Origin: a virus
IMG/VR virus record: IMGVR_UViG_3300047299_000067
Span: 32,001 to 96,000 of that record
DNA: 64,000 nucleotides
Reading direction: 5' to 3' (one strand)
The notes beneath the pieces were generated by a model. The model saw only the letters and a program-made list of their open reading frames with translations. It was not told where the DNA came from and did not search any database. Made by a program: the position numbers and the translations under genes. The stretch's first letter is position 1. Each line of letters begins with the position of its first letter. Of the stretch, positions 8,072 through 64,000 are shown in pieces.

Positions 8072-8072
8072 C

Positions 8073-15064: not shown

Positions 15065-15067
15065 ATA
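15062..15067 (+). promoter_or_regulatory. putative late promoter core TAAATA
   Basis: TAAATA 5 nt before ATG 15073, no SD. Confidence 0.5.
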
Positions 15068-15072
15068 GTTGC

Positions 15073-16477: not shown

Positions 16478-17003
16478 TAGCGAATACGGCCTAGCTGCCG
16501 CAATAAAAACAACATTTGGCGACCACGACATAACTTATCTAAGCAGAGCAAGCGGCTATGATTTAACAAAAGCAGAACACCAGCAAAGGTTTGCGGAAGT
16601 TGCAGTTGACTTTGATGTTATCATTTTATCCAGTGCATTATGGAAGTTTAATCAAACTGTATTGCTAGACGTTGTATATAAGAAACTAAAAGCCGAAAAC
16701 AAAGAGCCATTGATTGTTTGTATAGGTAGCACAACCGATCGAGTAAACAAAGCGACAGACTGGTTATACAATGCCGAAAAGAAAGCGCTTAGAGATTATT
16801 GCAACAGTTTGAGCTTATCCGGCGTATGGAACAAAGGACCACGAGTAAGTTATATTAGTTTTGGCACACTAGATAATATGCAACATAAACATCCTAGCAG
16901 AAAGACTATGCCAATAGAACAGGCTGCTCAATATATCAAATGGATAATCGAGCAGCCTGTTGGGTTGCATGTAAACGAATTAAGTTTAGATCCTATACAG
17001 TGA
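16455..17003 (+). CDS. short-chain dehydrogenase/reductase-like protein (compact)
   Basis: N-terminal Rossmann ILVAGNSEYGLA, IGS, YNAEK (YxxxK). Confidence 0.7.
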   Translation: MKILVAGNSEYGLAAAIKTTFGDHDITYLSRASGYDLTKAEHQQRFAEVAVDFDVIILSSALWKFNQTVLLDVVYKKLKAENKEPLIVCIGSTTDRVNKATDWLYNAEKKALRDYCNSLSLSGVWNKGPRVSYISFGTLDNMQHKHPSRKTMPIEQAAQYIKWIIEQPVGLHVNELSLDPIQ

Positions 17004-47965: not shown

Positions 47966-50614
47966 TTATCCAAATAGCATATCGAAACTTGTTTTTTGAT
48001 CACTTGCACTAATGTCCCATCCGAGCCCGCCGATCAAGTTATCTACTTTGTTGTCGATAATAGTTGCTTCCATTGCACGATGGTCGAATGGTAAATCTTT
48101 AAACCATTCAGGCAGTCTAAGTTCGTCAATTGGATACGCAATGCTGGTAATACCCATTGGATTAGATTTTAATTTACAAACAATAACTTTCATACCGTCT
48201 GTAATATCCATGCTTCTCTGATCGCTATTTGCTCGTTTGAATCTATTCCAATTGATCGCTGCCATTGCGTGACCAACACCGCACTTACCAGTCTTTTGGA
48301 AAACTTCCGTGTGCTTGGTTAAGTTATTGACTCGCTTTGGAGTACCTTTTTCCCAGCCTGGACGTTCCTTAAAAATAGTCCTAAACTCATTGATAGCATC
48401 GATAACGTCTTGTTTGTCTTGTCCTCTGAGTACCATTAGCAAAATCTTTTCTAAAAACTTTTGCATAAACTCAGGAGTATCTGCACGTTTAAGATCAAGG
48501 CCCATAGCTTTAACTTCGCCATCGGATCCATCTTTATCTTTACGCTTGCCTTCTTTATCATAGATAAGAACTGCATAACGTTTTTTAGTAATAAACAAAC
48601 CTTTACTTGCAACAACTTCTCGACCGGCTGCAATAACCTTACCAAAACTATCAGGGCAGTTAAATGCCATATTCATAAACGGTGCAAAACTTGCATTGAC
48701 ATCTTCTGCCACTGTGTCATACAGTTCTACTACTTTATCTTTAGACCAATCAACTTCACCGTTATTGATTTGTTTCTCAAATACCGGGAACGCACTAAAA
48801 TAACAAGAGTCGGTATCACCATAGATAATAGTTTTACCTACGTGATTGTAATCGCCTGTGAATAGTTCGTTAGTCTTACTTGCCATATGCTTTGCTACAC
48901 AACGACCGGTTAGCGTAGTACTTTGCCCCATGCGTTGATCGAAAAATCTGCTACCTGCATTTAGCAACGCACCGTATAACGAGTTCAGGTTAATCTTTTT
49001 AACTAACTGTCGCTTGTCCCAGAACTCGAACTCTTTTTCATTGTCACTGCATGCTTTTGCTTTTTTCTGTAGCTCTTTTCGTTCGGCATACCAACGTGCA
49101 AGTAATCCGGGAATAACGCCTTGTTTTTCATACGTAAAGATTGTGCCGTTAGCAGTTAGCATCCAAGGATTGCCACTTAGATAAATCAACTCGTATGCTT
49201 CGGCTGCACTCATTTCACTGCTTCGCCCATCTTCCCAATCAATGACTAAATCATAACCTTTATTTTTATTCATGATTTCGTCATACTCGTACACGCAAAA
49301 CTTTCCGTCCCACCAGTCGGCAAACGCTTCGCCTTTGGCTAACCAGGCTTTAAGTTCTGTTTTAGTTTGCACCAAACGAACTTGTCCGATGATTGTTTCT
49401 GGACTCATGTTCAATGCACGAATCAAAGAAGGATACAAACTGTTCAAGTCCATAGATCCAATCCAATCATGAACTCCTTGTTTTGGATATGCAACATACG
49501 CACCAGCAGCTTGTGTTTCTTGTCCGTCACCTCTGGTTCGGTCGGGTACCATTAAACCTCTGCTATGGGCTTCGTTGATAATAGCTTGGTCGGTCATAGC
49601 AACCGCGCCCAGTGTAGTTCTAAGTGTAACAGTGTTAGCATGTGCCAATACATTTACCAAGTCAATGTATTGCAGTTTAGCATCCAATTTAACTAACAGT
49701 GCAGTATCTTGTCTGTTATATTGGATAAACTTTTCAAAGTCATTATTGTAAAGTTGATCCAATGTGCCTTCATAATGCACTTTTGTTTCGCCGATTTCAA
49801 TTTCACCCACATAGTCTAAACGGTAAGTGTGAAGTTCGTGATAAGTGTATTTGCGATACAAGTCTAAGTAGTCGAGATGCACTCGTCCGACAAAGTCAAA
49901 TGTTTCTGAGATTTTGCCATATTTTTCGTATTCTCTACGAACAGGTTTTGTATTCCAAAGACAAAAGCGTCTTGTATGATCTGCGCCCATTAGTCTGGAT
50001 ATACGATTAACGGTATATGGAACGTCATAGCCTTCAGAGTTCCAGCCGCTTATAGTATCTGCATCTTCTAACAAAGATAAAAATGTGTCTAACATTTCTT
50101 CTTCGCTTGCACAAAGTAACGTGTCTTCAAACCTTGCAGCAATAGCTTCTGCTTGTTCCTGAGACATGGCTTTTGGTTTAATGACCAAAGTAAATAGTCT
50201 GTTTATCCAGCTACAATGGATAGAGATGGCAGTAATAGGATTAAACGGATCGCTTGGATCAGCAAACCCTTTAACTTTATCATACGCGACTTCAATGTCG
50301 AAGAAGGCCTTGTTTAATTCGGGAGCTTCTGCGTTTAAGTAGTTTGTTTCTAAACAACGATTAAGCGGCTTGATATCACTTTCGTATAACTTTTTATGTC
50401 CGAAGATTCGTTTTTCTTTATCCAGCGCTTTACGAGTGGCAACTGCTACTTTGGCTAATCTTTGTCCGTCAATACCGGTGTATTGACCTTTACTGTCTGG
50501 ATAGTAAAACAAATAATGTGCAGGGAATTGACGCTCTTTCCTAACACCATCTACTCGCTCGACGACTTTAACTAAGTCTTTTTCTTTTATATAAACTGCG
50601 TCAATATAGCTCAT
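47966..50614 (-). CDS. family B DNA polymerase (gp43-like)
   Basis: Exo FDIE, GWN...YD.PY, YN..D; pol DLNSLYPS, K..LNS.YG, YGDTDS, KKRY. Confidence 0.97.
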   Translation of the reverse strand: MSYIDAVYIKEKDLVKVVERVDGVRKERQFPAHYLFYYPDSKGQYTGIDGQRLAKVAVATRKALDKEKRIFGHKKLYESDIKPLNRCLETNYLNAEAPELNKAFFDIEVAYDKVKGFADPSDPFNPITAISIHCSWINRLFTLVIKPKAMSQEQAEAIAARFEDTLLCASEEEMLDTFLSLLEDADTISGWNSEGYDVPYTVNRISRLMGADHTRRFCLWNTKPVRREYEKYGKISETFDFVGRVHLDYLDLYRKYTYHELHTYRLDYVGEIEIGETKVHYEGTLDQLYNNDFEKFIQYNRQDTALLVKLDAKLQYIDLVNVLAHANTVTLRTTLGAVAMTDQAIINEAHSRGLMVPDRTRGDGQETQAAGAYVAYPKQGVHDWIGSMDLNSLYPSLIRALNMSPETIIGQVRLVQTKTELKAWLAKGEAFADWWDGKFCVYEYDEIMNKNKGYDLVIDWEDGRSSEMSAAEAYELIYLSGNPWMLTANGTIFTYEKQGVIPGLLARWYAERKELQKKAKACSDNEKEFEFWDKRQLVKKINLNSLYGALLNAGSRFFDQRMGQSTTLTGRCVAKHMASKTNELFTGDYNHVGKTIIYGDTDSCYFSAFPVFEKQINNGEVDWSKDKVVELYDTVAEDVNASFAPFMNMAFNCPDSFGKVIAAGREVVASKGLFITKKRYAVLIYDKEGKRKDKDGSDGEVKAMGLDLKRADTPEFMQKFLEKILLMVLRGQDKQDVIDAINEFRTIFKERPGWEKGTPKRVNNLTKHTEVFQKTGKCGVGHAMAAINWNRFKRANSDQRSMDITDGMKVIVCKLKSNPMGITSIAYPIDELRLPEWFKDLPFDHRAMEATIIDNKVDNLIGGLGWDISASDQKTSFDMLFG

Positions 50615-50892
50615 GTAATTATATATTTTGTAAAGCCTACAATGTCAATTGTAGTTAGCATGGCATACATGCTTGTTTGCCCAAAGCTACCTCGGCTCCA
50701 TGCACACACAGCCGCAATACTACATCCACTTAGCCAAAGAGGATATAAGATGTAAAGAGCAGGGTCCGTAACTGTTGCAGCCAATATAATGCTACAAGCA
50801 ATGCTAGCAAACCAGTTGTAACATTCGCCTGCCATTCTCCATGGATGCTCTTGCCAGTCCCGCCGCATCCATTCGATTATATAACTTATCAA
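50611..50892 (-). CDS. small membrane protein
   Basis: Hydrophobic helices; ATGA overlaps. Confidence 0.65.
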   Translation of the reverse strand: MISYIIEWMRRDWQEHPWRMAGECYNWFASIACSIILAATVTDPALYILYPLWLSGCSIAAVCAWSRGSFGQTSMYAMLTTIDIVGFTKYIIT

Positions 50893-51146
50893 CGATGACC
50901 TGCAACTTCGAGTACTTCTTCAACTTCTGTGAATGCTGTTTGCTCTTTTTCAAATTCATTTTTGTAAGCGATTTTAAGAGCTTTTTTAAGGACACCTGGC
51001 TTCATGTCCAATTCTTCTGCAATACCTTTGATGGTATCTGCCAAGCCTTCATTGAGTGCTGCGACTTCACTCATGACTTGCATGCCTTCGGCAAATAGTT
51101 TTTTGATTTTGGCTTTTTCATCGCCACTAAACATACGAGGTTCCAT
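50889..51146 (-). CDS. T4 DsbA-like dsDNA-binding protein
   Basis: Helical 85 aa, ..IK.IAEEL...P..L.K..K.AYK pattern. Confidence 0.6.
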   Translation of the reverse strand: MEPRMFSGDEKAKIKKLFAEGMQVMSEVAALNEGLADTIKGIAEELDMKPGVLKKALKIAYKNEFEKEQTAFTEVEEVLEVAGHR

Positions 51147-51168
51147 AATAACTCCTAAGTAAAATGTT

Positions 51169-51196
51169 ATTATAACAAATTACACGGAAAAGTCAA
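51169..51196 (-). promoter_or_regulatory. sigma70-type promoter driving dsbA-like/polB
   Basis: TTGACT-N16-TATAAT. Confidence 0.65.
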
Positions 51197-51197
51197 A

Positions 51198-51452
51198 CTA
51201 TTTGGTAAAGAGGGCGACTTCTTTTTCTCTGAGGATTTTTAAGTCTTCTGATGGACGACCTGAATCTAAAATCCATTTGCGAAACTCCACTACTGCATTG
51301 GTAGTATCGTTTTTATTGATAGCTTTTAGTAAAGTGCTATTTCTAAATATAGCTATACCACGATCGTTTATAAAAGACTCTATGGCAGCGATTTGGTTTT
51401 TGTTTAGTTCTACTCGAACCAAATCTTTAATTGCTTGTTTAACTGATTGCAT
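51198..51452 (-). CDS. C-terminal half of a GH24 phage lysozyme (no catalytic N-terminus)
   Basis: V.V.LN.NQ..A..SF....G...F..STLLK..N.......EF.KW....G....L...R..E..LF. Confidence 0.65.
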   Translation of the reverse strand: MQSVKQAIKDLVRVELNKNQIAAIESFINDRGIAIFRNSTLLKAINKNDTTNAVVEFRKWILDSGRPSEDLKILREKEVALFTK

Positions 51453-51892
51453 TATCTATTTTTTAGTGTAGCAGATAACATCCATGCATGTTTGGCAAAT
51501 GCATCTTGACGTTCGGCCATCAAATTACTTAGTCCGTGATTACCGCTTTGTTCGGCAATATCATAGCATACTTTAATGCTTGTCTGGATAACCTCAATAT
51601 CACCTAACAATTTTTGCAACATGTCTTGTGCATTTGGGATTTCAACTTGGTCTTCGATTTGACTAAGCTCTGCATAACGACTAAAACTACCCGGCGCATA
51701 TGCTCCGATAGTTCGAATACGCTCGGCAATAGTATCTATAGCACTATAAACTTCGCTGTAGATTTCTTCAAAGAAGCTGTGATATTGTTTAAAATCTCGA
51801 CCTTCTACATTCCAGTGAAAGTTTTGTGCTTTTAAGCTGTATGCATAATGATTTGCTAATACAATTTTAAGTGCTTGTGCTAATTCATCCAT
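51452..51892 (-). CDS. dps: Dps / ferritin-like DNA protection protein
   Basis: FHWNVEG..F...H..FEE.Y......D..AER, KH.WML. Confidence 0.92.
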   Translation of the reverse strand: MDELAQALKIVLANHYAYSLKAQNFHWNVEGRDFKQYHSFFEEIYSEVYSAIDTIAERIRTIGAYAPGSFSRYAELSQIEDQVEIPNAQDMLQKLLGDIEVIQTSIKVCYDIAEQSGNHGLSNLMAERQDAFAKHAWMLSATLKNR

Positions 51893-51896
51893 CGAG

Positions 51897-52013
51897 TTAT
51901 TCCTTGCTTTGTTTATTTACCGTATTTGCATTTATAACAAAATATGGTAAGAAACATAATTTGACGTAAAATTGAGAGTAAAGGTCTAACCAATACTCTA
52001 CAATTTTTGTCAT
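51897..52013 (-). CDS. possible 38-aa hydrophobic peptide
   Basis: MTKIVEYWLDLYSQFYVKLCFLPYFVIN...; ATGA overlap with upstream stop. Confidence 0.35.
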   Translation of the reverse strand: MTKIVEYWLDLYSQFYVKLCFLPYFVINANTVNKQSKE

Positions 52014-54190
52014 ATACTTCCGCCTACTGCACGACCTTTAAAAGGATGCTGCTTTTCTTCTTTGCCTATAACAGGGCTTGTTTTCTTTGGCATTTCGCTA
52101 CTAGGAACTTGTTTGGCTTTCTTTTGGTTAGCATCAACAGATTCCATTGCTTGACGTAATGCACTATGTCCTCGAGATTCTTTAACAGGTTCTGCATCAC
52201 GCGCTGCCTTTAGTTCTGATTGTGTAGCACCTGCACGTCGAGCGGCCGCTGCATCTTCGGAACTTTTGCTTTTTGCAAATTTCGCAAGTAGCTCTGCTCG
52301 TGTGCCTCCTTGACTTTTTGGATTATAGTCTGTTACGCTAGTAGTTTCGCTAACGCGGCCAGTTCGCTTATCGCTTAGTGCTCTGCTTAATCCTGCTGCA
52401 CGTTTCTTTGCACGAGCTTCTTGTTCCTTACTATAATCTTCCAAACCTGGATGGCCTTTGCTTGCACGAGCGGCAAAGTTTGACATTCCGTAATCGTCGC
52501 TTGCTCGTGCAACATAACGGTTACGTAGTTTGTCGCTAACTTCTGTTACACCTTGACCTTTAAGGCCGCGAGTGGCAGAGTTTAAACTGCTTAGTGTTAC
52601 GCTACGAGTAGTATCGGGGTTCATAACTAAGTCAACACTAAATGGCTTACCGTTTTTGTAAAAATGTAATTCGTTAGTTGTTGTTTTAAAGTTATCTGCA
52701 CCATACTGACGCAATAATTTTACAGCATCTCTCATTGGTAATGATGTTGCAACGCCTTCTACTACTTGTTTTAGCGGACCTTTAATGCCATCTCTATGAT
52801 AGAACTTGACATTGCCTTGTTCATCTTTTTTAGCAGTAACTTCTTTGCCACCTTTTCTGCCCACATACTTGCTAGTACCAGGCTTCATTGTGTTTGTTTC
52901 GCTCTTGAATGCTTCTGCGTGTGATTGTGTATTTGGGTCAGTGCCTTCGTCTAGCGTGCCATATTCAACTGCTTCGCCGCCAGCAGATAATGCTAATTCC
53001 TGTACCGCATCCCAAAACTTACGGGGAATAGTCATAGCTTCATCTTGCCAATCGATAAAATTACCGAACTTTTGCATAACGTGATTGTATGCACGTTCGT
53101 TGCTCAATTCAAAGGAAATAACATCGCCGTCGGCTTCGTTCATAGCTCGCCAGTCATCATACTCGATATAAAAGTCAGTTTCAGGATCGTAGTACTTGCC
53201 TTCTACTTTATCATAATAAACAACCTTGCCACTCTTAGTAGAGAATGGACCTTCTAAGCCATCGCGTTCTGTGTAACGTTCGCGATCAATACCTCGAGTT
53301 ACTGTATAGCCTTCGGCCACACCTTGCTTCGGAATCAATTTGTCAATAGTAGTGCGAATTTTTAATCCTGCTTCTGGTTCACTAAAAATAACACCAACAT
53401 CATTGCGGGCTTTGATGAAAGCAATCTTACCCACACCTTGATAACCGCGAACATTCACTGTGTCACCTACTTTATATTTTGGTGTTTCTGGGAACCCTCT
53501 ACCAACACCAAATTCATCCAATTGCGCTTCTGCCACACCTCGGTCTCTACGGCGTAACTCGCTCTTAGCCATCTTGCCTTGCATCTTAGCAACTTTGCTA
53601 TGGAATGGCCCAGTCTTTTTGTCCGCTGTAGACTTAACAAACTCGTCACTTGCACCTTGCATTTGACTTTTGATATCTCGTGGTGTGCGTGTGTCGCCTG
53701 TGCCAAAGCGTGATTTTTCTAATGGCTTGTTTCCAGCTTCCGCCACACCTTGCTCTTTTTGTGCTTTTTCTGCTGCTTGTATTTTACGCCATAAGTTATT
53801 CATTGGACCTTCCATAGAACGTGCTTTACGTTCGTAGTCGCTTAAATTCTGCTCACGATCTGCATACTGCCAATTGCTACCGCCTAATGACTTATACTCG
53901 TCTTTCATTGACTCGTATTCGGCCTTTAACGCAGGTAGTGCTGCAATATCTGCTGCCAATTGCTTTTCTTGTTGCGATTTACGTGCTGCGTCGTCACGAG
54001 CTTTTAAACGATTTAAGCCACGCTCACGCTTGTCAAATGTAGCCGCGTTCTTTTCGCGCTCTTCTGGACTACGAGCAAACATTATATCCATTTGGCTTTG
54101 CGCCTTTTGTTTTAATGCTTTATTGCGATAGTCGCCTAGACTAACTTCGTCTAGGCTTTTTTTGTCGTTGCTAAATTCGTTTAATCTCAT
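52010..54190 (-). CDS. putative capsid-internal polyprotein of about 11 short modules
   Basis: N-terminal MRLNEF; modules separated by QGVAE/RGVAE/QGVTE/[LV]xE sites. Confidence 0.7.
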   Translation of the reverse strand: MRLNEFSNDKKSLDEVSLGDYRNKALKQKAQSQMDIMFARSPEEREKNAATFDKRERGLNRLKARDDAARKSQQEKQLAADIAALPALKAEYESMKDEYKSLGGSNWQYADREQNLSDYERKARSMEGPMNNLWRKIQAAEKAQKEQGVAEAGNKPLEKSRFGTGDTRTPRDIKSQMQGASDEFVKSTADKKTGPFHSKVAKMQGKMAKSELRRRDRGVAEAQLDEFGVGRGFPETPKYKVGDTVNVRGYQGVGKIAFIKARNDVGVIFSEPEAGLKIRTTIDKLIPKQGVAEGYTVTRGIDRERYTERDGLEGPFSTKSGKVVYYDKVEGKYYDPETDFYIEYDDWRAMNEADGDVISFELSNERAYNHVMQKFGNFIDWQDEAMTIPRKFWDAVQELALSAGGEAVEYGTLDEGTDPNTQSHAEAFKSETNTMKPGTSKYVGRKGGKEVTAKKDEQGNVKFYHRDGIKGPLKQVVEGVATSLPMRDAVKLLRQYGADNFKTTTNELHFYKNGKPFSVDLVMNPDTTRSVTLSSLNSATRGLKGQGVTEVSDKLRNRYVARASDDYGMSNFAARASKGHPGLEDYSKEQEARAKKRAAGLSRALSDKRTGRVSETTSVTDYNPKSQGGTRAELLAKFAKSKSSEDAAAARRAGATQSELKAARDAEPVKESRGHSALRQAMESVDANQKKAKQVPSSEMPKKTSPVIGKEEKQHPFKGRAVGGSI

Positions 54191-55563
54191 TTTGCTGCCT
54201 TTTTATGTGCATCATCATAAACGGAACCTGTCGCTCCATCCCACTCGCCAACGCCCTTGCCATCTTTAAGTGCTTGGCAAATATCACGGTCGCCGTCGAA
54301 GCTATTTGCGCCTGCACGTTTGCAAGCCGCGCGCCAGCCGCTGTAAGTGTTATATTCTGTTTCGTCCATGTGATTTTTTGCTTCTACAACATGACGTAGA
54401 TTTTCGATGAACTCACGAACTTTCTTTGGACGGCCTCGGCTGCTCTTGTATGCACTCAATTGTGCCGCTGTAATAGTCTTACCGGCTTTCTTGTCAATGC
54501 TACCAGAACCCGCGTCCCATGAACCAATAATAGAATATTTGTCGCCTTTAGGAACAACTGCAATAGCTTTTTCTGCACTACCGACAATCTTACGCTCTGG
54601 GTGTTGACGCTTAGACTTATGATACCATAGTCTATAATCGGAAATCTTTTCTGCGCCATCGGTAGTAGAAACTGCTGCACTCGGACGTCCTCTGCTTCTT
54701 ACAGGAGCTGCTGCTTTTGCAACTACTTTAGCTTCTGCATCACGCTTTTTGGCTGCTGGCTTTTTGTTACCCCACGAGTCAAAATCGTCCTCGTCTCCGT
54801 CGTCACCTTGGAATTCGCTGCCATACTTGCCTTTATGTACAACCCCTGTATTTGTTTTAGTTACTGTAGTACCCATACTGGTTTTATGACGCTTGTCATT
54901 AAAACCATACCAATCATCATCTTCATCATCGTAACGTTCCATTACGCGAGATTTTTTACCTTCGGTAATCATTTTTCTATAAGCGATTTTAGCTTCTGTA
55001 ATGTAATCATGCACATCACGGTCAAAGCGTTGTGTTACCCATTCGAAAGGATCACCGTCACGAGCTTTTGCTACTCCATAAGGCATTTCGCCATGCATAG
55101 AATAATAATCGTGCAAGCTGTGATATAAGTCTGTATCTAACTCATCGCCTGCCACAAAATCTTTAACTTCTTTAGGAAAGCGTTGTACAATATGCTTTAA
55201 AGTGTTATCATTTTGCGGAACATGTGTAATATCTTCTTGCACACCAGGTTGGCCGATACGAGTTGCTGCTGCTTGGCTCATTTCACCGCTGCGATCTCTG
55301 TATAACATATCGCGCATTGGTTTCATTAAGCTGTCAAACGTAGCAGGGTTAGCTAACATTTGCATAAACTGCTCTTGTTGTCCGTTTTGTAAAGACTTTT
55401 TATATAAGCCGTAGATAAAACGTGCTTCTGGATACTCTAATGTAACAGGCTCGCTACCTAACATAATAGTAGCAGAACTACCGCTTGTTGCAGCGTTGGC
55501 AATATTCTTTAAATTGCTTGCGCCAGTCATTACTGGACTTTCGTATAATTCAAATAATTTCAT
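54187..55563 (-). CDS. putative capsid-internal modular protein with AT-hook-like RGRP motifs
   Basis: MKLFELYE start; PGVQE, ITE, VVE junctions; two RGRP. Confidence 0.7.
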   Translation of the reverse strand: MKLFELYESPVMTGASNLKNIANAATSGSSATIMLGSEPVTLEYPEARFIYGLYKKSLQNGQQEQFMQMLANPATFDSLMKPMRDMLYRDRSGEMSQAAATRIGQPGVQEDITHVPQNDNTLKHIVQRFPKEVKDFVAGDELDTDLYHSLHDYYSMHGEMPYGVAKARDGDPFEWVTQRFDRDVHDYITEAKIAYRKMITEGKKSRVMERYDDEDDDWYGFNDKRHKTSMGTTVTKTNTGVVHKGKYGSEFQGDDGDEDDFDSWGNKKPAAKKRDAEAKVVAKAAAPVRSRGRPSAAVSTTDGAEKISDYRLWYHKSKRQHPERKIVGSAEKAIAVVPKGDKYSIIGSWDAGSGSIDKKAGKTITAAQLSAYKSSRGRPKKVREFIENLRHVVEAKNHMDETEYNTYSGWRAACKRAGANSFDGDRDICQALKDGKGVGEWDGATGSVYDDAHKKAAK

Positions 55564-55566
55564 GGC

Positions 55567-56025
55567 TTAACCTTTATAATCGCTAAAATCAAAAACTCTC
55601 TTAAGTCTGTCGTATGCTCGAGTGTCGGTGGATTCGTCGAATGGAATTCGAGCAGGAGTTTTTCCGCTCCAAATTCTATGGCTCCTATTTTGAGGGTTTG
55701 GACTCACTCTTGGTCCGTGTGTTTTTTGTTCTTTGTCATTAAAATAACCAAGTTCTTCGTCGTCTTCGTCTTCACCGGAACCATAAGCTCTGCCATGTTT
55801 AACTCCACTGTTTCCCGAAGATTGTGCAGCATGCTTGCTGTTGACAGCATTAATCATGTCGTCCCAGCCTTCCGCCACACCTTGCTTCATTTTTACAGCT
55901 TCCGCTTGTAATTGTTCTAACATAGCAGTGTATTCTGCATGCTGCGATTCACTTAAAGATGTGCGATCAACTTGGCTTAAACGATTAGCCAGTTCATACA
56001 TCTTTTGTGCTCTAAGTTTATCCAT
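55567..56025 (-). CDS. putative capsid-internal protein
   Basis: Contains LSE and KQGVAEGW. Confidence 0.65.
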   Translation of the reverse strand: MDKLRAQKMYELANRLSQVDRTSLSESQHAEYTAMLEQLQAEAVKMKQGVAEGWDDMINAVNSKHAAQSSGNSGVKHGRAYGSGEDEDDEELGYFNDKEQKTHGPRVSPNPQNRSHRIWSGKTPARIPFDESTDTRAYDRLKRVFDFSDYKG

Positions 56026-56212
56026 TGTTCTTAGTTCCTTTTTCTTCCGCTATGTTAGCATAAGGCTTGCGGCTAATTATCTCTTGACCGGATTCTTTGC
56101 GCATACCTCGTGTTTTACGACGACGATGTTGACGCATAAAAGGTAACGAAACTGCGGCAAAGCCGCCTGCTCCTATGCCCATCGAGTCTTCGATAAGTTC
56201 TTTAATCTTCAT
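56018..56212 (-). CDS. small basic putative internal protein
   Basis: MKIKELIED; TAAATA (56218-56223) 5 nt upstream. Confidence 0.65.
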   Translation of the reverse strand: MKIKELIEDSMGIGAGGFAAVSLPFMRQHRRRKTRGMRKESGQEIISRKPYANIAEEKGTKNNG

Positions 56213-56238
56213 GCTTGTATTTAGTCAATTTGTTTCGA

Positions 56239-57597
56239 TTATTTCTTTAAACGCTTAAACTTAGTTCCTAGTAGCTCAGTCATCAGCGGACCTTTTTCTA
56301 CATAGTTTCTTCGTTCTTCGCTGGTAATTTTAACACGGAATTTTAAAAACAATTTACCACTTAGTTCATCATAAATCTCAACTTGCGGCAAACCCACTTT
56401 ATAGTTATAACGTGCAGAAAGTTTAACGCTTGCTAATTTATTTTCCATATCGTCGAACTTCATCATTTTGTATCCGCCGCTAACAAAGTCAATAAGAATA
56501 ACGTTTGGATTGTTTAGTGTTGCAAAATAGTTGATACCTTTTGCCAAATCCTTGATAAACATATATTCGTCTTCGTCGTTATTATATGATAATAACGTAG
56601 CCATGACATCTGCTGCAAATTCATAAACAAATTGTATAGCAGGGACTAGACCTTTTTTCTTAAAGATAGAATCAAATTGCTGCTCAGTTTCTTTAATATC
56701 AATACCAAACTTACTCCAAAGTTCCGTTTGCTTTTTAAAGAAATCGTATAGTCTATCGGAGCCGATTCCAACTTGCCCAAATTGGGCAGCGTCTGCTTTC
56801 AAACTAATATCCAATCGTTTTCTATCTACTTTACCCGTTGTTTTGTCGGTGACTACAATTTCAATGTCTACTTTACTAATTTTTTGCTTTTCTGGGTTGC
56901 CGCCATCGCAAATAATATTGATAATATCGGGGCGGCCATTTAAGTAATAATACTTACTAAATTCAGTATTGTCATCGCTGTTGGCAAAACGTGCTGCACT
57001 AGCTGCTTCATCTTTTAATAACTCGCGCTTTGCAGGGTTTATAAAATCTTGGTAAGGTTCTGGGGGTAACACTAATGTAAAAACAATCTTATCATTTACC
57101 ATAGACTTGCCATCTCTTACACTTACTGCGTAAGTATCTGCACTGGTTTGTGTAAGAGAATCTACAACTGCCCAAATATCATCTTCACTAACTTCTGCAA
57201 TTTGTTTATTCACCCTTGCTTTTAATTTGGCAAATAATGCCGCTGCTAAGATACCTTCGGCTACATCGCCTCGGTTAGAAATTTTATCGCTACCATCGCC
57301 GCCTGTGCCTTTAGAATCTTTAAATTCTGGAGTTTTTTGCAAACTACCTAAAGGAATCGTTGTGCCATTAGTTAGTTTTAGTTTAATAGAACCTGCAAAG
57401 CGTCCTGCATCCATTAGTGCTTCTAATCTATCTGCTTCTGCCGGGTCGATTTCTACTTGTTGCCCATTTGTAGTTTCAAACGGAGATCCAGAACGAATTT
57501 TGTTTAAGAAAACGTCCTTGCGTCCAGGACGTTCGAGGATACCTTTAGCAGCTAATCCCACTTCTAATAATGCTTGTTTAAGTTCTAATAGTTTCAT
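56239..57597 (-). CDS. putative PD-(D/E)xK nuclease-fold protein with capsid-targeting-like N-terminus
   Basis: MKLLELKQALLE; G..AE helix, KVDI..., ISLK....QFGQ; TAAATA (57603-57608) 5 nt upstream. Confidence 0.5.
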   Translation of the reverse strand: MKLLELKQALLEVGLAAKGILERPGRKDVFLNKIRSGSPFETTNGQQVEIDPAEADRLEALMDAGRFAGSIKLKLTNGTTIPLGSLQKTPEFKDSKGTGGDGSDKISNRGDVAEGILAAALFAKLKARVNKQIAEVSEDDIWAVVDSLTQTSADTYAVSVRDGKSMVNDKIVFTLVLPPEPYQDFINPAKRELLKDEAASAARFANSDDNTEFSKYYYLNGRPDIINIICDGGNPEKQKISKVDIEIVVTDKTTGKVDRKRLDISLKADAAQFGQVGIGSDRLYDFFKKQTELWSKFGIDIKETEQQFDSIFKKKGLVPAIQFVYEFAADVMATLLSYNNDEDEYMFIKDLAKGINYFATLNNPNVILIDFVSGGYKMMKFDDMENKLASVKLSARYNYKVGLPQVEIYDELSGKLFLKFRVKITSEERRNYVEKGPLMTELLGTKFKRLKK

Positions 57598-57615
57598 AAT
57601 GATATTTATTTATTT

Positions 57616-57816
57616 TTAGTCTCTGTCCAGAATATCTCTGTTTTCTCGTAGCCATGCTCTTGCTGCATTACTGTCATCGAATATTTTACGTGTGACGCCA
57701 TCGCCGTCTAATACGTGATATCTAACTTCTATGCTGTTATCTGCTCGCTTGCGTCTTGTTTGTTTAATAAAGGCACGACCGTCATCTATATCTTCGTGTA
57801 ATTCTTGTAATCTCAT
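57616..57816 (-). CDS. small putative internal protein
   Basis: MRLQELHED start. Confidence 0.65.
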   Translation of the reverse strand: MRLQELHEDIDDGRAFIKQTRRKRADNSIEVRYHVLDGDGVTRKIFDDSNAARAWLRENRDILDRD

Positions 57817-58889
57817 GAGCGTTTTCCTTTAATCAAATTCATAATACCCGCAAACTTAGCGTGTCTGTCTTCTAAACCTTTTAATCCTGCGTTGATCGGT
57901 TTCGTCACTTGGGTAGTGTCATTAAAATTACTAACTTGAGGCTGCACTCGTTGTTGCCAATACCATACTGCTACTTTAGCTGCAACATCAGGACGTTCTA
58001 CTAGTTCAGGTTTTTGTTCTAACGGCAAACCTAACGCTTGCCCTGCACGTTTATAATTGTCGCGGCCTGTTAGTTGTATAAATCCACGTCCGGCATATTT
58101 TGCTCCATCGCCTGCTGCTTTATTTCCCAGTATCTTAGCTTTACGAGGATTGTGTTTTGGATCGTATTTTCTAAAATCCAAACTGCCGCCAAATTCTTTC
58201 ATACGAGTAAAGTTGGCAGACTCGTGTGCGCATTGTGCTAAAAATTGTGCTAACTCTGCTCCTTTAATACCTGCCGCTTGTGCAGTTTGTATAAGGATTT
58301 TAGCTTGGGGATGCAGTATAAGTTTAGTTGTTTTTGTTTGATCTAGTGCTGCACCAGCCTGCGGCGCTGCTGCGGGCGCTGGTTGTGTAAGTTTTGCAGT
58401 TGCTGGCTGTGCTGTTAGTGCAGCCGCGCCTATAGTCGCTCCTGCTACCCAATCTTTCCATCCCTCATCCACTGGCTCCCATTGCATGCTTTTGCCGCCT
58501 TTTTGTATCGGCGTAAATCCTTGACCTTTGTAGAATTTTGTTAGTTTGGCTTGACTAACTTGTCCTTTGTCCCACGGGAATAACGTCAGTGCGATACCAT
58601 CTTCTCGTGCCATTGCCTGTAGCTGTTGCATAGCACGACTACCAATTCCTGCACGTAATGGGTATGCTTGGAACCATTTAACTTCTACTGCTCCGCGTTT
58701 AGAAAAACTCGGAGTTAGTTCAAACATAGCAAATTGCTCTTCACCAAAAGGCATAACGTGATTGTTTTGCCATGTTTGCGGGTATTTTGCATAGATTTTT
58801 TCAATCCATGATTGAGCAGCCGCGCGACCATTATCGCCTAGCTTTATTCTATTAGGTTCGTTTTCGGATATAATATCACGTATTTGCAT
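57813..58889 (-). CDS. GNAT-like acetyltransferase + GH19 chitinase/lysozyme fusion
   Basis: R.GIGS..M..L, L.KFY..QGF; LAQ..HES, Y.GRG.IQLTG..NY, INAG..GL.DR. Confidence 0.8.
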   Translation of the reverse strand: MQIRDIISENEPNRIKLGDNGRAAAQSWIEKIYAKYPQTWQNNHVMPFGEEQFAMFELTPSFSKRGAVEVKWFQAYPLRAGIGSRAMQQLQAMAREDGIALTLFPWDKGQVSQAKLTKFYKGQGFTPIQKGGKSMQWEPVDEGWKDWVAGATIGAAALTAQPATAKLTQPAPAAAPQAGAALDQTKTTKLILHPQAKILIQTAQAAGIKGAELAQFLAQCAHESANFTRMKEFGGSLDFRKYDPKHNPRKAKILGNKAAGDGAKYAGRGFIQLTGRDNYKRAGQALGLPLEQKPELVERPDVAAKVAVWYWQQRVQPQVSNFNDTTQVTKPINAGLKGLEDRHAKFAGIMNLIKGKRS

Positions 58890-58890
58890 A

Positions 58891-61236
58891 TTATGCCATA
58901 ACAGGAACTACGCTAACTTCGCCGGATATGACTACACCGGGGTTATTCCTGATCCATGTTGCCGCTACTCTATTAGCATCCGATTGACTATTACCTACTC
59001 CACTAAACTTATAAAGTTCTTGCCCCAAGCCATCTACAATCTTCCACTCGCCTGTAAATTGAGTAGGTGCCGTTGCTGCGGGCGCAGTGCTAGTAGCTTG
59101 TGCAGCACGTACATCAAATATAAATCTATGCCCGTAGGTATTCATAGCATGAGCATTAGCTTCTTGTCTTGTTCCTCTAAAGCGTTCTACGACTTCACCT
59201 GTTGCATGATTTGCGATTTCCCAGTCTTGAGCAGATGCTGTGTTTGCACTAGGTTGTGCAGTAGTATCAACCGGCCTAGTAGAAGGCGCAACGCCTGCTG
59301 GTCTGTTATAATCTGCAGGGATTTCGCGAACTTCAACATCTGTTCGCATGTTAGGATTTCCTGCACGAGTTGTTGTTAAAAATTCTTCACCTGCTTCGCG
59401 GCTTGGGAATCTACGCAGCTGGTCATAGTTATTACGATCTCTTGCAAAACGTTCAGAGCTACTAATCCAAATGCCCCAATTTCCTTCTTGAGAAGGTATA
59501 GTCGCAGGCGTTTCTCTATAAGGATACATAGGTTTTGCAGTTGCATTACTCATTGCGTCCGCTCTTCCTGCTACACCCCATTCTACCGCTGCTTTCTGCA
59601 ACGCTTCGTCTTTGTTTGCAGCTACAATTTCAATGCTCGCGCCATTACTAGCACCAGCGCCTTCTTTATCTACGCGCCACCAGTATTTTGTGCCTGGGGG
59701 TATTTTGCCTTTTGACATATCTCGTTGTAGCTGTGCGGAACGAACTTGACGGATTAGTGCATCTTTTGGTAAATCGCCTGCAGAGTAGTTGGCAAACAAT
59801 TCTAAAATACCAGGTTCGTTTGTGCTAGGTGCTAATAGCTTGTATAGCTTTTTGGCATACTCTTGTTTGTATTTTGTTTCATCGATTGCGGCATCCAATG
59901 CTACTACAAATCTAAGTAGCGTAGGCTCGATCATTTCAAAATTAGTGTTTAGCCAGTCGCCGCCGGGGCTGCGAAACTCGATATAACCGTCTTTTGTATT
60001 GATGCTGGTAAATTTATTAGTTATACCGCTGTGTATTACTTTAGCAGCCGCAGTGCCTAGATGTTCTTTCATTTTACCCAATAGTGCAGAAGCTTCGTCG
60101 GGACGAGTTTTAATGTTTTGTTTAACAATACTTAAAGCGCTTTTGCAATAAGTATTACCTAGTCGTCCGAATTCATTTAATACTCGCTCGTCGCCTAACA
60201 ATATAGCTAACTTTACATAATCTAATTTTTCTAAACTATAATTAGGAACACTAACGTTGATGTGCAATCCTGTAGAATTGTTTGTATAACAATTATTGTT
60301 GTCTGCCCATTCCTTGACTGCGATTAAATCTGCCAATAAGTCTTTAATAGGCATAGGCGGGCTAACGAATTCTAAACCTTGATCGCCCGCATTGTCTCCC
60401 TCTAAACTACCGTCGGGCTCTACTACATAACCATCTGGAGTTCTTCTTGCACCATGATAGCTAGTGCTGTAATTTATTTTCTTACCTAAATAGTCGCCAA
60501 ATTCTTTTGCAATTCTGGCTACATTTTCTTCACCGTTACCATAGCTGTCATTTTCTGTCCAGTACGGCCATTCGATATCGAAGTTATTAGAAATATCCGC
60601 CATAGAATAGTATCCAGCATCTTGCAACCAATCATCGCGTAAGTTATTGTCGTTGATATACTCATACCAGCCATTATTTTCCCAGTCTTCATATGCTTCG
60701 TCATAATCAGAACCCATGTCTGCTAGTATTTCATCGACCTTTTCATTCATTAGTTCTTGTGCTCGTGCATCCACTCTGCTACTCAATTCTTCTGCGTTAG
60801 TGCCGAATTCCGGAGTATCGTCCAATATTTCCTGTCTTGCCTGGTCTATAAGTTTATCTTCGTAATCACGTTCTACTAATTCTAAAACAAGTTGATAACT
60901 AGAATCGGCCCACGCTTCTAGTTTCTTCTCGCTTAGCCAGTCACTGTCTTGGAATTCTTCTTCTAACGCTTCCATCAAACGGCGCACGGCTCTGCTTGAG
61001 TTATGTTCGCCATCGTCAAAGAAGCGTTCAATTTCGTCGAAGCTATCTGCGCTAGTATCTTGATCGTAATCGGGTTCCGATTCAAAATCGTCGTCATCTA
61101 TACTTCCGACATCAGGTACAATCATTTCAAATTCCATACCTGCACGAGCATCGATCCCTTGAGCTAACTGTTTTAAGCTAGACGGGCTCATGTTGATTTC
61201 GTTTATAAGTTGTTCTAATATTTCTGTATATTTCAT
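58891..61236 (-). CDS. putative amidoligase (COOH-NH2 ligase) with C-terminal repeats
   Basis: GMEFE, PDGSL, EFVSPP, TN.STGLHINVS, K..SIN, IEFR; MKYTEILE start. Confidence 0.75.
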   Translation of the reverse strand: MKYTEILEQLINEINMSPSSLKQLAQGIDARAGMEFEMIVPDVGSIDDDDFESEPDYDQDTSADSFDEIERFFDDGEHNSSRAVRRLMEALEEEFQDSDWLSEKKLEAWADSSYQLVLELVERDYEDKLIDQARQEILDDTPEFGTNAEELSSRVDARAQELMNEKVDEILADMGSDYDEAYEDWENNGWYEYINDNNLRDDWLQDAGYYSMADISNNFDIEWPYWTENDSYGNGEENVARIAKEFGDYLGKKINYSTSYHGARRTPDGYVVEPDGSLEGDNAGDQGLEFVSPPMPIKDLLADLIAVKEWADNNNCYTNNSTGLHINVSVPNYSLEKLDYVKLAILLGDERVLNEFGRLGNTYCKSALSIVKQNIKTRPDEASALLGKMKEHLGTAAAKVIHSGITNKFTSINTKDGYIEFRSPGGDWLNTNFEMIEPTLLRFVVALDAAIDETKYKQEYAKKLYKLLAPSTNEPGILELFANYSAGDLPKDALIRQVRSAQLQRDMSKGKIPPGTKYWWRVDKEGAGASNGASIEIVAANKDEALQKAAVEWGVAGRADAMSNATAKPMYPYRETPATIPSQEGNWGIWISSSERFARDRNNYDQLRRFPSREAGEEFLTTTRAGNPNMRTDVEVREIPADYNRPAGVAPSTRPVDTTAQPSANTASAQDWEIANHATGEVVERFRGTRQEANAHAMNTYGHRFIFDVRAAQATSTAPAATAPTQFTGEWKIVDGLGQELYKFSGVGNSQSDANRVAATWIRNNPGVVISGEVSVVPVMA

Positions 61237-63365
61237 TTTTTGTTCTTAAAAGTATTAATACGACGCTCTTGCTTCTTGACCCATTCTTTACTAGGTTTCC
61301 CTTCGCCTTTAAAATAAACCAACGGTCTGCCTTCTTTTTTACTTACTATTGCCCATCGCTTGTGTATCTTACGTAAGTATTCGAACAAGTCCGTTGCTTT
61401 ATATGCTTCGCTAACCGGTTGGTCGATATCTTTTAATTTTAACCCCATGCGTTTAAGCAATGGTAAAAGTTTATGTTCTTCTTCTTCGCTACCAAATGCT
61501 AAAATAGTTTCAGGAGCACCTTGACCAAATATTGCAGGATCAGCGTCATCTAAGTCACTAATAACTTGTCCTAACTTATACCAGTCGTAAGTGTCGCTTA
61601 CTTTAACTAACGTTGTTCCTTGCGGAAACGGGATTAGATTTTTACTTTTGGTTACATTTTCTATACCCGAATGCTCGTCTTCTTTAATACGATTAGTAAA
61701 CGGAGTAATTTTATTTTTTTCTGCCCATCGAACATAAGAAGCAATGCTGTCGAATTCTTTTGTTTTTACATTTGCTTTATTATCACCGTCTTGCTTGCTA
61801 AAGTAATCACGCATTTGCGATAATTTAGTTTTATCTTTGGCGTTTTTGTCTCCCGCAAAATAATCTCGCATTGTAGCTAAACTTGCTTCTGTTATATTTA
61901 CTGTAGGTAAGTTTAGTTCAAAACGCAATCTAATCATAGTTCTAAACTCATTGTATTCTGTAGCCGTTGAAAAAGTAAACGTATGAGTAAGTGTAATATT
62001 ACTAAAACGTTTTGGCGGATAATTTACTTCTCCTTCGGGTCCTGTAAATAAGAAACCAGTATTATCTTGACTTATAAATTTTAAATATTGCGGTTTTTTG
62101 TCGAACAGTTGTAATTGATCATTTACCAACATTAGCGGAACTGCTATATAGCTTTTACCTTTAATCGGCGCTGGATTAGATTCTATAATTGATTTAAAGT
62201 AATCAACTGTTTGCTCTGTATTAGACTCTGTTAAATTTCCTTTAATAAAAAATTGTTCGAAAAAAGAAATCTTGTCATCAACAGACATACTATTAGGCAA
62301 ATCAGACCAGTATGGTCTTGATTCGTCTACACTTTGCTTGGGTTCGTATACTGTAGGATAACCTGTCTTGCGATTATACACGCCAACTGTTTCACCTTGG
62401 CTGTTTCTAGCAATTACGCTGTCAACAGCACCGCCACCTTCTTTACGATTGGAAAACTTTACATCGGCACCGTGATCCCGGCGAACTTGGTTAGCCCACC
62501 CTCTTACACTAACACCAGTGGAGCCTTCCGCTACACTTTGCTTTTTATAACCTGCACGATATTGGTTGTGATCATAGTTTGCTTCACTACTGGCTTTGGG
62601 ATCAAAAGGATATGGATTGTCGTATGGCTTTCCTTGTGCCGCAATACCTTGTTGATATGCTGTAGGTGGTTTGTGCTGTGGTGAGTTTTTCTGCGGATTG
62701 CGAATGTGGTGAGGAGCCTGTGCTATTACAATAGGAGCGCCTTCCGCTACACCTTGTTCTTTAACTTTCTGTCCACGCTTGACAGGTAATGGATAAGCTG
62801 TACATGCTTCTTTAACTGTATCAAAGTATGTTTTACCTTCTACACGGATCTTTGGATCGGTCCCGCTTGCTTGATAAAATGCAACTTTATCATCAGCACG
62901 GGCAGCATCACGTAGTGCTGTGGCACTACTTACTCGAGGGCTGGGCACATGAACGATTTGTGCAAATTTGTAATATCCGTGTCGGCCTTCGACTCCGTTG
63001 TATTGATTTAATAACTTGCCGGACCATGCCCAGTCTGTTTCGTCTGTGATATAAGCAATAGTAGCATCTTCTTTGTTGCCCAAATCTTTATAAATTCTCG
63101 CTGCTAGCGTAACTACGCTTTGTTCTGGTGCAATATGTCCAGCAATAGCAGGATAAATCGCTTGCATCCACGCAGACTTTTGTTCAAAAGAAAGCGGATC
63201 GTTCGGGCCTATGGTGCTAGGATTGGTTCCGATATACCATTTAACGCCAGCGTTTTGTACTGTTTGCCAAACTGCAATGTGACCTTGGTGTGCAGGATTA
63301 AATCGCCCGAAAGCAAACGCTGCGGTTACACCTGCTGCTTCTTTTAATATATGTCTTATCTTCAT
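61233..63365 (-). CDS. HIGH-motif nucleotidyltransferase fused to repeat-delimited modules
   Basis: FGRFNPAHQGH, NDPLSF..K, SATALR; then EQGVAEG, KQSVAEG, KQSVDE; ATGA overlap gives start 63365 (MKIRHILKE). Confidence 0.8.
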   Translation of the reverse strand: MKIRHILKEAAGVTAAFAFGRFNPAHQGHIAVWQTVQNAGVKWYIGTNPSTIGPNDPLSFEQKSAWMQAIYPAIAGHIAPEQSVVTLAARIYKDLGNKEDATIAYITDETDWAWSGKLLNQYNGVEGRHGYYKFAQIVHVPSPRVSSATALRDAARADDKVAFYQASGTDPKIRVEGKTYFDTVKEACTAYPLPVKRGQKVKEQGVAEGAPIVIAQAPHHIRNPQKNSPQHKPPTAYQQGIAAQGKPYDNPYPFDPKASSEANYDHNQYRAGYKKQSVAEGSTGVSVRGWANQVRRDHGADVKFSNRKEGGGAVDSVIARNSQGETVGVYNRKTGYPTVYEPKQSVDESRPYWSDLPNSMSVDDKISFFEQFFIKGNLTESNTEQTVDYFKSIIESNPAPIKGKSYIAVPLMLVNDQLQLFDKKPQYLKFISQDNTGFLFTGPEGEVNYPPKRFSNITLTHTFTFSTATEYNEFRTMIRLRFELNLPTVNITEASLATMRDYFAGDKNAKDKTKLSQMRDYFSKQDGDNKANVKTKEFDSIASYVRWAEKNKITPFTNRIKEDEHSGIENVTKSKNLIPFPQGTTLVKVSDTYDWYKLGQVISDLDDADPAIFGQGAPETILAFGSEEEEHKLLPLLKRMGLKLKDIDQPVSEAYKATDLFEYLRKIHKRWAIVSKKEGRPLVYFKGEGKPSKEWVKKQERRINTFKNKK

Positions 63366-64000
63366 TGTGGTGTCCAACGCTTTCTCGGCACAAACTTCAC
63401 GTTGCCGAATTGTTTATTTTGATCCGCATAACGTACACGACCTTCACCGTGTGTATCCCAAATTTCTGCTCGAGGTCCCGACTCGATTTGGTCAATTACG
63501 TTATCTTTTAGCAACTGAATTGCTCTTACTATTTTAAATATTTCTTCTAAAATATTATTAGTATTTAACTGTTTTATTTTCTCTTGTTTGCCTGCGCTTA
63601 CCTTTGTCGCTGCCCATGTAAAAAAATGTTCTGTACTTAAACTGTCCAATTGTTTGGCTTTTGCAGATTGATTAACATAAGTGTAAATGATTTGTTTTAA
63701 ATCGCTTATACCTGCGCCGCCTGCTAAAAATGCATCTATTTTAGTACCATACTTTTTAATATGACTCTCGACTTGGTCGATCATAGTAGTATCTACACTA
63801 ACCGGTGCAACGTTATAAATCGGACCTAATACAATTAGTTTAGGGTTTGTATTAAATTGACTAAAATCTTTAATAGGAATTTGTTCGCTATCAGACTGCC
63901 CGTGTGCCGTAAAATATGCGTGACCCACTACCATAACTTCTGCTTGTGCAATACGCTTACCTAATTCACTGTCTGCACGAACATGATAGCATGTTTGACT
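63362..64000 (-). CDS. DUF6267-like protein, 3' part (open to window end)
   Basis: Frame open to 64000 (..YHVRADSELGKRIAQA..); C-terminal GEG...VKFVPR. Confidence 0.55.
   Translation of the reverse strand, partial: SQTCYHVRADSELGKRIAQAEVMVVGHAYFTAHGQSDSEQIPIKDFSQFNTNPKLIVLGPIYNVAPVSVDTTMIDQVESHIKKYGTKIDAFLAGGAGISDLKQIIYTYVNQSAKAKQLDSLSTEHFFTWAATKVSAGKQEKIKQLNTNNILEEIFKIVRAIQLLKDNVIDQIESGPRAEIWDTHGEGRVRYADQNKQFGNVKFVPRKRWTPQ

Follow-up and report, generated by a model that had tools for sequence, protein, structure and literature searches.

The present analysis concerns a 16-nucleotide (nt) repeat, CAAGGTGTGGCGGAAG, and the block of genes in which it is found, within a stretch of virus DNA of 64,000 nt (the window) that comprises positions 32001-96000 of the 117,305-base-pair (bp) IMG/VR record IMGVR_UViG_3300047299_000067. 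Read in frame as the peptide QGVAE, the repeat links protein modules; it is conserved as DNA beyond the needs of this peptide, and it marks the places at which relatives differ by gain, loss, replacement and movement of modules between genes. The gene block extends from window position 52010 past the window end, up to contig position 104165. The completeness rating of the record, 33%, points to a genome of about 350 kilobases (kb). The encoded DNA polymerase, a family-B enzyme of T4 type, has its best tblastn matches in the jumbo phages Phosso (49%) and Atu_ph07 (46%). Megablast of the region against phage records gave no match, no cultured phage being close at the DNA level, and tblastn of the first polyprotein gene of the block, g112, gave a single weak match of 65 residues. 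The window is best explained as part of a jumbo-phage fragment, with a genome of the size given above and a T4-type replication and head system.

The features of the block are listed below, with a slash marking the module boundary, lengths in amino acids (aa), and h and x standing for a hydrophobic and for any residue. Sequence names with L denote related loci, those with G large records (G000 being the contig itself) and those with X sets of run contigs, which come from four runs of four studies and were aligned to window positions 50600-63400. The coordinates of the LDE/G and QVVE/G joints were worked out from the translated sequence.

52010-54190, minus strand: g112, a 726-aa leader-tagged polyprotein (MRLNEF...) containing four linkers that are canonical or nearly so, besides other h-x-E joints
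52142-52156, minus strand: relic internal leader ...LRQAME/S in g112; the module that follows it opens a separate leader-tagged gene in L020 and L123
52541-52555, minus strand: linker variant QGVTE/V in g112, where a module indel of 405 nt has its lower end in X5 and X7
52757-52768, minus strand: variant joint QVVE/G (aa 475-478) in g112, with joint 52755>53527 in contig 24 of X7
52946-52954, minus strand: variant joint LDE/G (aa 413-415) in g112, upper end of the 405-nt indel, with joint 52539>52945 in X5 and X7
53312-53326, minus strand: linker QGVAE/G in g112, matching the g114 copy at 21 of 22 nt including flanks, with loose ends at 53311 (X2) and 53314 (X5)
53528-53542, minus strand: linker RGVAE/A in g112, a joint end in X3 (53325>53542) and X7 (52755>53527)
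53738-53752, minus strand: linker QGVAE/A (CAA GGT GTG GCG GAA G) in g112, an in-frame match to the 16-mer
54187-55563, minus strand: g113, a 458-aa leader-tagged protein (MKLFELYE...), conserved in relatives
55567-56025, minus strand: g114, a 152-aa two-module protein with one linker; its homologue in relatives holds modules found here in g112
55870-55884, minus strand: linker QGVAE/G in g114, with joints and loose ends at 55864-55886 in X3, X5 and X7
56018-56212, minus strand: g115, a 64-aa leader-tagged small basic protein (MKIKELIE/D...)
56239-57597, minus strand: g116, a 452-aa leader-tagged protein with cyanophage and Desulfovibrio phage homologues that have no leader
57616-57816, minus strand: g117, a 66-aa leader-tagged protein (MRLQELHE/D...)
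57813-58889, minus strand: g118, in which a 139-aa N-module and a GH19 (endolysin/chitinase-like) module are fused behind a leader; L123 and L124 have the two as separate genes
58464-58475, minus strand: joint PVDE/G in g118, equivalent to the leader end ...ELDE/G of the separate L124 gene
58891-61236, minus strand: g119, a 781-aa leader-tagged protein with an Amidoligase_2 domain
61233-63365, minus strand: g120, a 710-aa leader-tagged polyprotein with a cytidylyltransferase-like N-domain, modules of 72 and 68 aa and a 362-aa C-domain
62322-62336, minus strand: linker variant QSVDE/S in g120, lower end of a 420-nt two-module indel
62526-62540, minus strand: linker variant QSVAE/G in g120
62742-62756, minus strand: linker QGVAE/G in g120, with joint 62337>62758
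63362-64000, minus strand: 3' part of g121 (DUF6267), whose leader (MRLLELKE/A) lies beyond the window end

When up to three mismatches are allowed, the window contains seven copies of the 16-mer, compared with a mean of 0.25 over 100 shuffles, none of which reached seven. All copies are situated on the minus strand (at 52540, 53311, 53527, 53737, 55869, 62525 and 62741), four of them in g112, one in g114 and two in g120, and each is read within a long open reading frame (ORF) as Q/R-G/S-V-A/T-E. Three more QGVAE copies lie outside the window on the same contig, in two genes further along. An earlier note on this DNA, made from the letters alone, had described a 16-nt repeat that is always in the QGVAE frame, which is borne out by these counts, as is its statement that two copies in different genes (53309-53330 and 55867-55888) differ at one position only. 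The 8-9 copies in four genes given there become eight joints, if the further variant QSVDE of g120 is counted, in three genes; the fourth gene meant is probably g118, the joint of which is not the 16-mer.

Beyond this contig, the exact 16-mer is present in at least 120 IMG/VR contigs, as a scan of this collection revealed, and many of them hold two to four copies at a spacing that is a multiple of three. Among the matches listed, which comprise 171 copies, 168 are part of a called ORF and are read there as QGVAE. Counts across relatives given here and below refer to the loci listed, 120 of which were chosen by the DNA word itself; they contain 151 proteins with one to seven sites each. In five large records, four to eight linker copies each are found, in clusters.

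Concerning the nucleotide level, GTG accounts for 11% of the Val codons of the block, GCG for 12% of the Ala codons and GGT for 39% of the Gly codons, whereas the ten (Q/R)GVAE linker sites of the block use GTG and GCG in seven cases each and GGT in all ten (binomial tail probabilities 2e-5, 2.5e-5 and 8e-5, respectively). GTG and GCG are thus retained in an AT-rich genome, as had been noticed before. Because the hypothesis arose from these same sites, a second sample was taken independently of the DNA word, from relatives found via the neighbouring protein g113 (65-80% identity). Its 11 sites exhibit GGT in 11/11, GTG in 10/11, GCG in 7/10 and GAA in 11/11 cases; a following Gly is encoded by GGC in 6/6, and the single Ser variant is TCG, which keeps the G. 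The sample not picked by the DNA word amounts to 21 sites in total. Among the 115 non-exact sites of the 120 listed loci, GGT is found at 107, GTG at 82 and GCG at 78. Information is confined to positions -5 to +14 (around 20 nt), with flanks at background level (285 unique sites), and the consensus linker DNA is [A/G]AG CAA GGT GTG GCG GAA GGC, encoding (K/E)-Q-G-V-A-E/G. Silent positions are therefore strongly conserved rather than randomised, also in relatives found by protein alone. A GVAE within an unrelated, conserved-looking, housekeeping-type gene of the same contig is encoded with the common codons GTA GCA.

The sequences L002 and L052 are 99.3% identical over 1838 nt, up to the last base of GGTGTGGCGGAAG, beyond which the modules are unrelated; similarity resumes at the next joint, which reads QGVAE/DW in one of them and ESVEE/DW in the other. 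When all listed loci were compared against all (matches of at least 300 nt and at least 88% identity), 20 of 51 internal match ends were situated 12 nt or less from the motif core, compared with 0.5 expected, in loci selected for holding the motif and with pairs counted both ways, such that, by our own count, around 13 distinct joints in 11 locus pairs are represented. The remaining 31 ends are mostly situated at variant linkers (QGMAE, PVAEG, LAE/A, MKE/G) or at leaders, and several high-identity matches span exactly from motif to motif. The earlier note had asked whether breakpoints of module gain and loss map to the repeat and whether module order is fixed; breakpoints do fall there, and the order is not fixed, as contigs of other samples show loss, gain and movement of modules between genes at the joints.

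Both small modules of g120 are missing in contigs of X5 and X7, owing to a 420-nt skip from QSVDE to QGVAE, and the L124 homologue of g120 also has neither of them, with a single joint, ESIE/A, in their place. In g112, a 405-nt skip leads from LDE/G to GVTE/V (X5, X7) and a 216-nt skip from one linker to the next (X3); seven X3 contigs differ on the C-terminal side of the linker at 53738-53752 (loose ends at 53737). A 24.8-kb contig of X7, around 93% identical to the window, carries two g112 modules within its g114 homologue, directly after the linker of the latter. Around 9 of the 24 loose ends listed for the run contigs lie at linker edges by our own count. Single modules of g112 are homologous to different proteins of other contigs, in a mosaic fashion. 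The slot between g113 and a Dps-like gene, which is occupied here by the one gene of 726 aa, is filled in L124 by a 775-aa gene composed of other modules, and in L125 and L126 by three to six individual small leader-tagged genes. The ferritin/Dps-like gene itself (PF00210, E 2e-24; window 51452-51892) is situated between the polymerase and the polyprotein block, and keeps that position in L124-L127.

The leaders of the block have the overall shape M-[KR]-h-x-E-h-(x)-x-E. The pattern M[KRQ]-h-x-[EDHQ]-h is found in 14 of 23 block genes (contig 84010-104165), compared with none of 133 other ORFs of the contig, and most block leaders have another Glu, within an h-x-E context, at position 8-13. 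Among the related loci, a strict form of the pattern occurs in 28 of 111 linker proteins and in 121 of 1326 others, a looser form in 56 of 111 and 171 of 1326 (odds ratio 6.9). Numerous modules that stand behind GVAE in one protein are directly preceded by a leader in another, and the boundary then lies exactly after the last Glu of the leader, as in the pairs ...INE/GW.QKYK and GVAE/EWSQKYK, ...LIE/AKQRLDPKCW and GVAE/EKQRLD.KCW, and ...LKE/AFDQPY and GVAE/AFDQPY. These shared boundaries, together with the cases of g118, g120 and the C-terminus of g112, indicate that leader ends and linker ends are one kind of boundary. The N-termini of T4 gp24 and Alt (NC_000866) resemble the block leaders; the single capsid-targeting signal assumed in the earlier note thus has a counterpart in these T4 propeptides, by analogy with which the leaders may direct proteins to the capsid.

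In g115 (56018-56212) and in genes of L004 (3958-4164), L039 (4357-4842) and L133 (1462-2658), the leader Glu is followed by runs rich in T, S, A and G (...E/TTTAGSVA). They resemble SSAGTTTAGNIA, located just after a likely cleavage site of the capsid protein in relatives, as well as the N-terminus of T4 gp24, and small leader-tagged proteins of this kind may mimic the N-arm of the capsid protein.

As an account of these observations, we consider it moderately likely that two layers act together, protease-cut leader-tagged chains on the one hand and linker DNA that serves as portable microhomology on the other. In the protein layer, the leader would bring the whole chain into the prohead core, as the capsid-targeting propeptides of T4 do; a T4-type prohead protease would cut behind the leader Glu and behind that of every h-x-E linker, and the modules would be released as separate head-internal proteins, probably ejected with the DNA. 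In the DNA layer, the near-identical 18-21 nt of the linker would offer microhomology to general recombination, of which the outcome is seen in the joints described above, such that modules could be deleted, inserted, replaced or moved, within a genome or between co-infecting relatives, each product remaining in frame and retaining a cleavage site. New joints would be built from consensus linkers, by which the consensus is kept alive, and old joints would decay at silent and P2/P4 positions while keeping V/M/I-x-E (P1 being the residue before the boundary). The interpretation of the earlier note is thereby supported in part: the conservation at DNA level and the joints at the repeat stand, cleavage and targeting are suggested by analogy, and the uniform module size has to be given up.

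The protein layer has to be weighed against the view that the linker is a recombination joint and nothing else, the chains being uncut multi-domain proteins in which Glu and Val are kept via the DNA or the structure of the linker. The DNA-level evidence does not require cleavage, and some chains combine enzyme domains that could work fused; yet the pattern of variation makes this view unlikely. Linkers almost always have Glu at P1, with a hydrophobic residue at P3 and no constraint at P2. Changes of P1 that need a single base are rare (GVAD 2, GVAQ 1, GVAK 8), whereas variants at other positions are common (GMAE 24, GVSE 19, GVEE 18, SVAE 15, GVTE 12), many of them keeping the remaining DNA word. 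Of 321 homologous boundaries other than GVAE, 151 have Glu at P1 and 156 have V, M, L or I at P3, and decayed joints that have lost the DNA consensus still keep h-x-E (QSVDE, ESVEE, PVDE, LDE, ESIE). Furthermore, linker ends are interchangeable with leader ends that resemble T4 propeptides known to be cleaved, and modules with no relationship to one another are found in a row, in no fixed order. The prohead proteases of T4, phiKZ, 201phi2-1 and SPN3US are all described as cutting after Glu at x-X-E, and T4 gp24 and the internal proteins as having targeting propeptides of 10-20 residues (PMC5694885, PMC9958956); for T4, a conserved targeting propeptide with highly diverse cargo behind it is described in PMC3012670. 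The cutting of linkers by a prohead protease, as proposed in the earlier note, accords by this analogy with the Glu and hydrophobic pattern and with the presence of a protease gene in relatives, and may be regarded as a predicted property of the chains.

Concerning the DNA layer, neither a tyrosine (PF00589) nor a serine (PF00239) recombinase was found in the contig, and no tyrosine recombinase (PF00589) in five large relatives, two of which are rated at least 99% complete, in agreement with the statement of the earlier note that no dedicated recombinase is visible. RecA/UvsX-family genes are present in four of the four large relatives tested.

Instead of portable microhomology, the conserved nucleotides might represent another signal in DNA or RNA, namely a nuclease site at which exchange starts, a two-tetrad G-quadruplex (GG-N3-GG-N-GG-NN-GG) or a translational pause. 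With 18-21 nt, the conserved span is as long as the site of a homing endonuclease; GIY-YIG genes are located within the block of the contig (L139 4899-5498, contig 100198-100797) and beside the g120 homologue in L124 (1293-2114); the silent G of GTG and of GCG are, in our own reading, those needed for GG runs; and both codons are rare here. We nevertheless hold such a signal to be distinctly unlikely. GIY-YIG genes make up only around 8 of the 1543 ORFs of the listed loci, and no local RNA structure or shared pairing was seen at nine core sites (mean minimum free energy -17.9, controls -17.4 +/- 5.4). The fourth GG run of a quadruplex exists only where Gly follows, at 162 of 285 sites, and the near-invariant T of GGT is left unexplained by it; other rare codons, GTC and GCC, are not used.

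A GIY-YIG nuclease as general partner of the linker was rejected for its rarity near linkers, and an RNA hairpin or other local structure at the linker was likewise not seen. A Chi-like site and a Shine-Dalgarno-like pause, both judged on the letters of the motif only, were dropped, as the motif occurs only in frame at module ends and no good match was obtained.

If leaders and linkers are processing signals, they might also sort proteins to a destination other than the capsid, with another Glu-specific protease and an envelope or other compartment involved. The block adjoins replication genes, it includes an endolysin-like GH19 module with a hydrophobic segment, and the leader is absent from homologues in phages outside the group. 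To this possibility we give little credence, since the leaders resemble the propeptides of T4 gp24 and Alt, since the same leader type is found on a small gene beside portal or protease genes in relatives and in Atu_ph07, and since the prohead protease is the only Glu-specific protease family found in these genomes. Peptidase_S77 is present in the motif-bearing records G002, G004, G005 and G006, and a gp23-type capsid gene in G002, G004 and G005. The head clusters of the latter three comprise a capsid propeptide, a scaffold (with VAE/G and VAE/S among its sites) and a small leader-tagged core gene, all of them rich in h-x-E; the Atu_ph07 counterpart of the small gene adjoins the portal gene. 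An origin of the repeat by chance or as an artefact of assembly is practically excluded by the shuffles, by its occurrence and its frame in independent contigs of several studies, and by its length, which is below the word size used to assemble the run contigs (31), such that it cannot cause misjoins there.

The internal modules of the related contigs (n=163) measure 22-483 aa, with a median of 82 and many at 50-80 aa. In the window they are 70, 72 and 257 aa long in g112 and 72 and 68 aa long in g120, such that of the five modules of strikingly similar size claimed earlier, four of around 70 aa (70, 72, 72 and 68) are recovered locally; similar size is a local tendency and not a rule. Modules are highly diverse, forming 380 clusters under a strict rule, the largest with four members; single-linkage clustering was dropped, as it chained 162 modules into one cluster. 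Mostly DUFs and enzymes are found, with cytidylyltransferase-like, Amidoligase_2, GH19 endolysin-like, GNAT, DUF6321, DUF5872 and DUF6267 modules among the recognisable ones. An AlphaFold2 model of g112 from its single sequence (mean predicted local distance difference test score 47.9, 470 of 726 residues below 50) is too poor to place the linkers relative to domains.

In T4-like cyanophages, DUF6321 and DUF5872 modules form multi-module proteins beside the gene of the small or large terminase subunit, with other E-ending joints and without a conserved DNA word. In P-SSM2 (L136 922-1737) and P-TIM68 (L135 481-1764), a multi-module basic Cys-rich protein is encoded just upstream of the terminase genes and shares module families (DUF5872, DUF6321 and others) with the freshwater polyproteins. 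The GH19 module of g118 opens with a hydrophobic stretch, WKDWVAGATIGAAALTA, right after the joint (aa 143-165), and is a leader-tagged gene of its own in L124; either a wall hydrolase that is ejected or a lysin anchored in the membrane may be encoded by it. The leader-tagged DUF6267 gene g121, which corresponds to L139 63-1196 (contig 95362-96495), contains a K-W-D-G stretch that we take to recall the lysine motif of nucleotidyl-transferase ligases. Elsewhere in the window, a run of around 18 tightly packed genes occupies the plus strand at 159-17003; several of them have Cys-rich, CxxxCxxC-like N-termini and, judged from these N-termini only, a radical-SAM look.

Several points weigh against the combination of protease-cut chains and portable linker DNA. 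Apart from the double counting of pairs and the selection of loci by the motif, which affect the breakpoint count as described above, 18-21 nt is short for efficient homologous recombination, and selection for working chimeras alone would also put mosaic boundaries at linkers. The position of the block next to replication genes, not head genes, belongs here as well. Some leader-tagged proteins are ordinary enzymes (cytidylyltransferase-like, amidoligase-like, GH19 endolysin-like) that could act in the cytoplasm or periplasm rather than from the capsid. DUF6321 and DUF5872 modules occur also in Pelagibacter podoviruses, in which, to our knowledge, a T4-type protease is not expected. Neither a protease gene (Peptidase_S77 included) nor a capsid gene was found in the 117-kb fragment itself, at its rated 33% completeness, and Peptidase_S77 was not found in G003. 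In G001 (342,865 bp, rated 99% complete; it holds L061), which carries five linker copies at positions 162928-181230, two protease families, Peptidase_S77 among them, and two capsid families gave no match; as not even a capsid gene is recognised there, these negative results say nothing either way, and either the head genes of G001 are very divergent or its completeness estimate is off.

We tentatively suggest that a family of giant freshwater phages possesses a system resembling exon shuffling for capsid-delivered proteins, in which the linker would be protease site and portable recombination site at once. With both properties united in around 20 nt, any module could be gained, lost or moved in frame between genes and phages, and an exchanged module would borrow the single targeting leader of its chain and still be freed as an injected protein of its own. 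The silent sites of the linker would then be kept, as we propose, because the linker itself is the unit of exchange. If this is true, a virus builds and reshuffles a large arsenal of delivered proteins by simple means and without a dedicated recombinase, with a recombination handle inside coding sequence at the very spot of protein cutting. Leader and linker together would constitute a rule for finding capsid-delivered proteins in uncultured giant phages, the functions of which are almost all unknown; the linker would be a natural ready-made site by which several foreign proteins could be loaded into T4-type capsids as one chain; and a clean case of selection on silent sites in a protein linker, testable at the bench, would be at hand.

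A literature search on phage capsid targeting, prohead proteases, jumbo-phage polyproteins and modular shuffling yielded no description of such a coding linker, and a search for 'QGVAEG' a single unrelated paper. The combination of features is new, whereas its parts have precedents in the PeSL cassettes, in gp38 and in the T4 propeptide. The organization is similar to that of the T4 internal proteins and Alt in the short N-terminal leader ending in h-x-E, with gp24 and Alt N-termini alike, in the diverse cargo behind a conserved targeting sequence (as described in PMC3012670) and in the gp21-type Peptidase_S77 protease of several relatives. Despite this similarity, there are clear differences: many putative cargoes are chained here as polyproteins with predicted internal sites, cargo genes are far more numerous (14 leader-tagged ones in around 20 kb), and the internal site is conserved as DNA.

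The PeSL cassettes of T4-type phages, as described by Arbiol et al. 2010 (PMC2839356), are variable segments flanked by a short conserved repeat, to which insertions, deletions and replacements between close relatives map, and they need no dedicated recombinase; these features are shared by the linker. According to the same description, PeSLs are intergenic promoter-terminator units that move whole genes, whereas the linker is coding and, in nearly all copies, in frame, moves protein modules and forms no stem-loop. Short in-frame motifs between interchangeable hypervariable segments are likewise described for the glycine-rich motifs of the T-even adhesin gp38 (PMC3157838), where they constitute the structural core of one domain of one protein; the present linker is found in many genes, between unrelated modules that fold independently, and has the appearance of a cleavage site.

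Giant phages that pack many proteins with their DNA, and whose protease cuts after Glu at x-X-E, are described with SPN3US and phiKZ (PMC5694885), as is proposed here. They belong to a different lineage, their motif is A-X-E or S/A/G-X-E and their propeptides are mostly long, and the account in PMC5694885, as far as it bears on these sites, reports neither a conserved DNA linker nor module shuffling. The comparison with integrons that was drawn in the earlier note holds as a loose analogy, in that functionally unrelated cassettes lie between copies of one site and are reassorted; unlike integrons, the arrangement found here has no integrase and no folded attC-like site, and what is exchanged is a protein module within an ORF rather than a promoterless gene.

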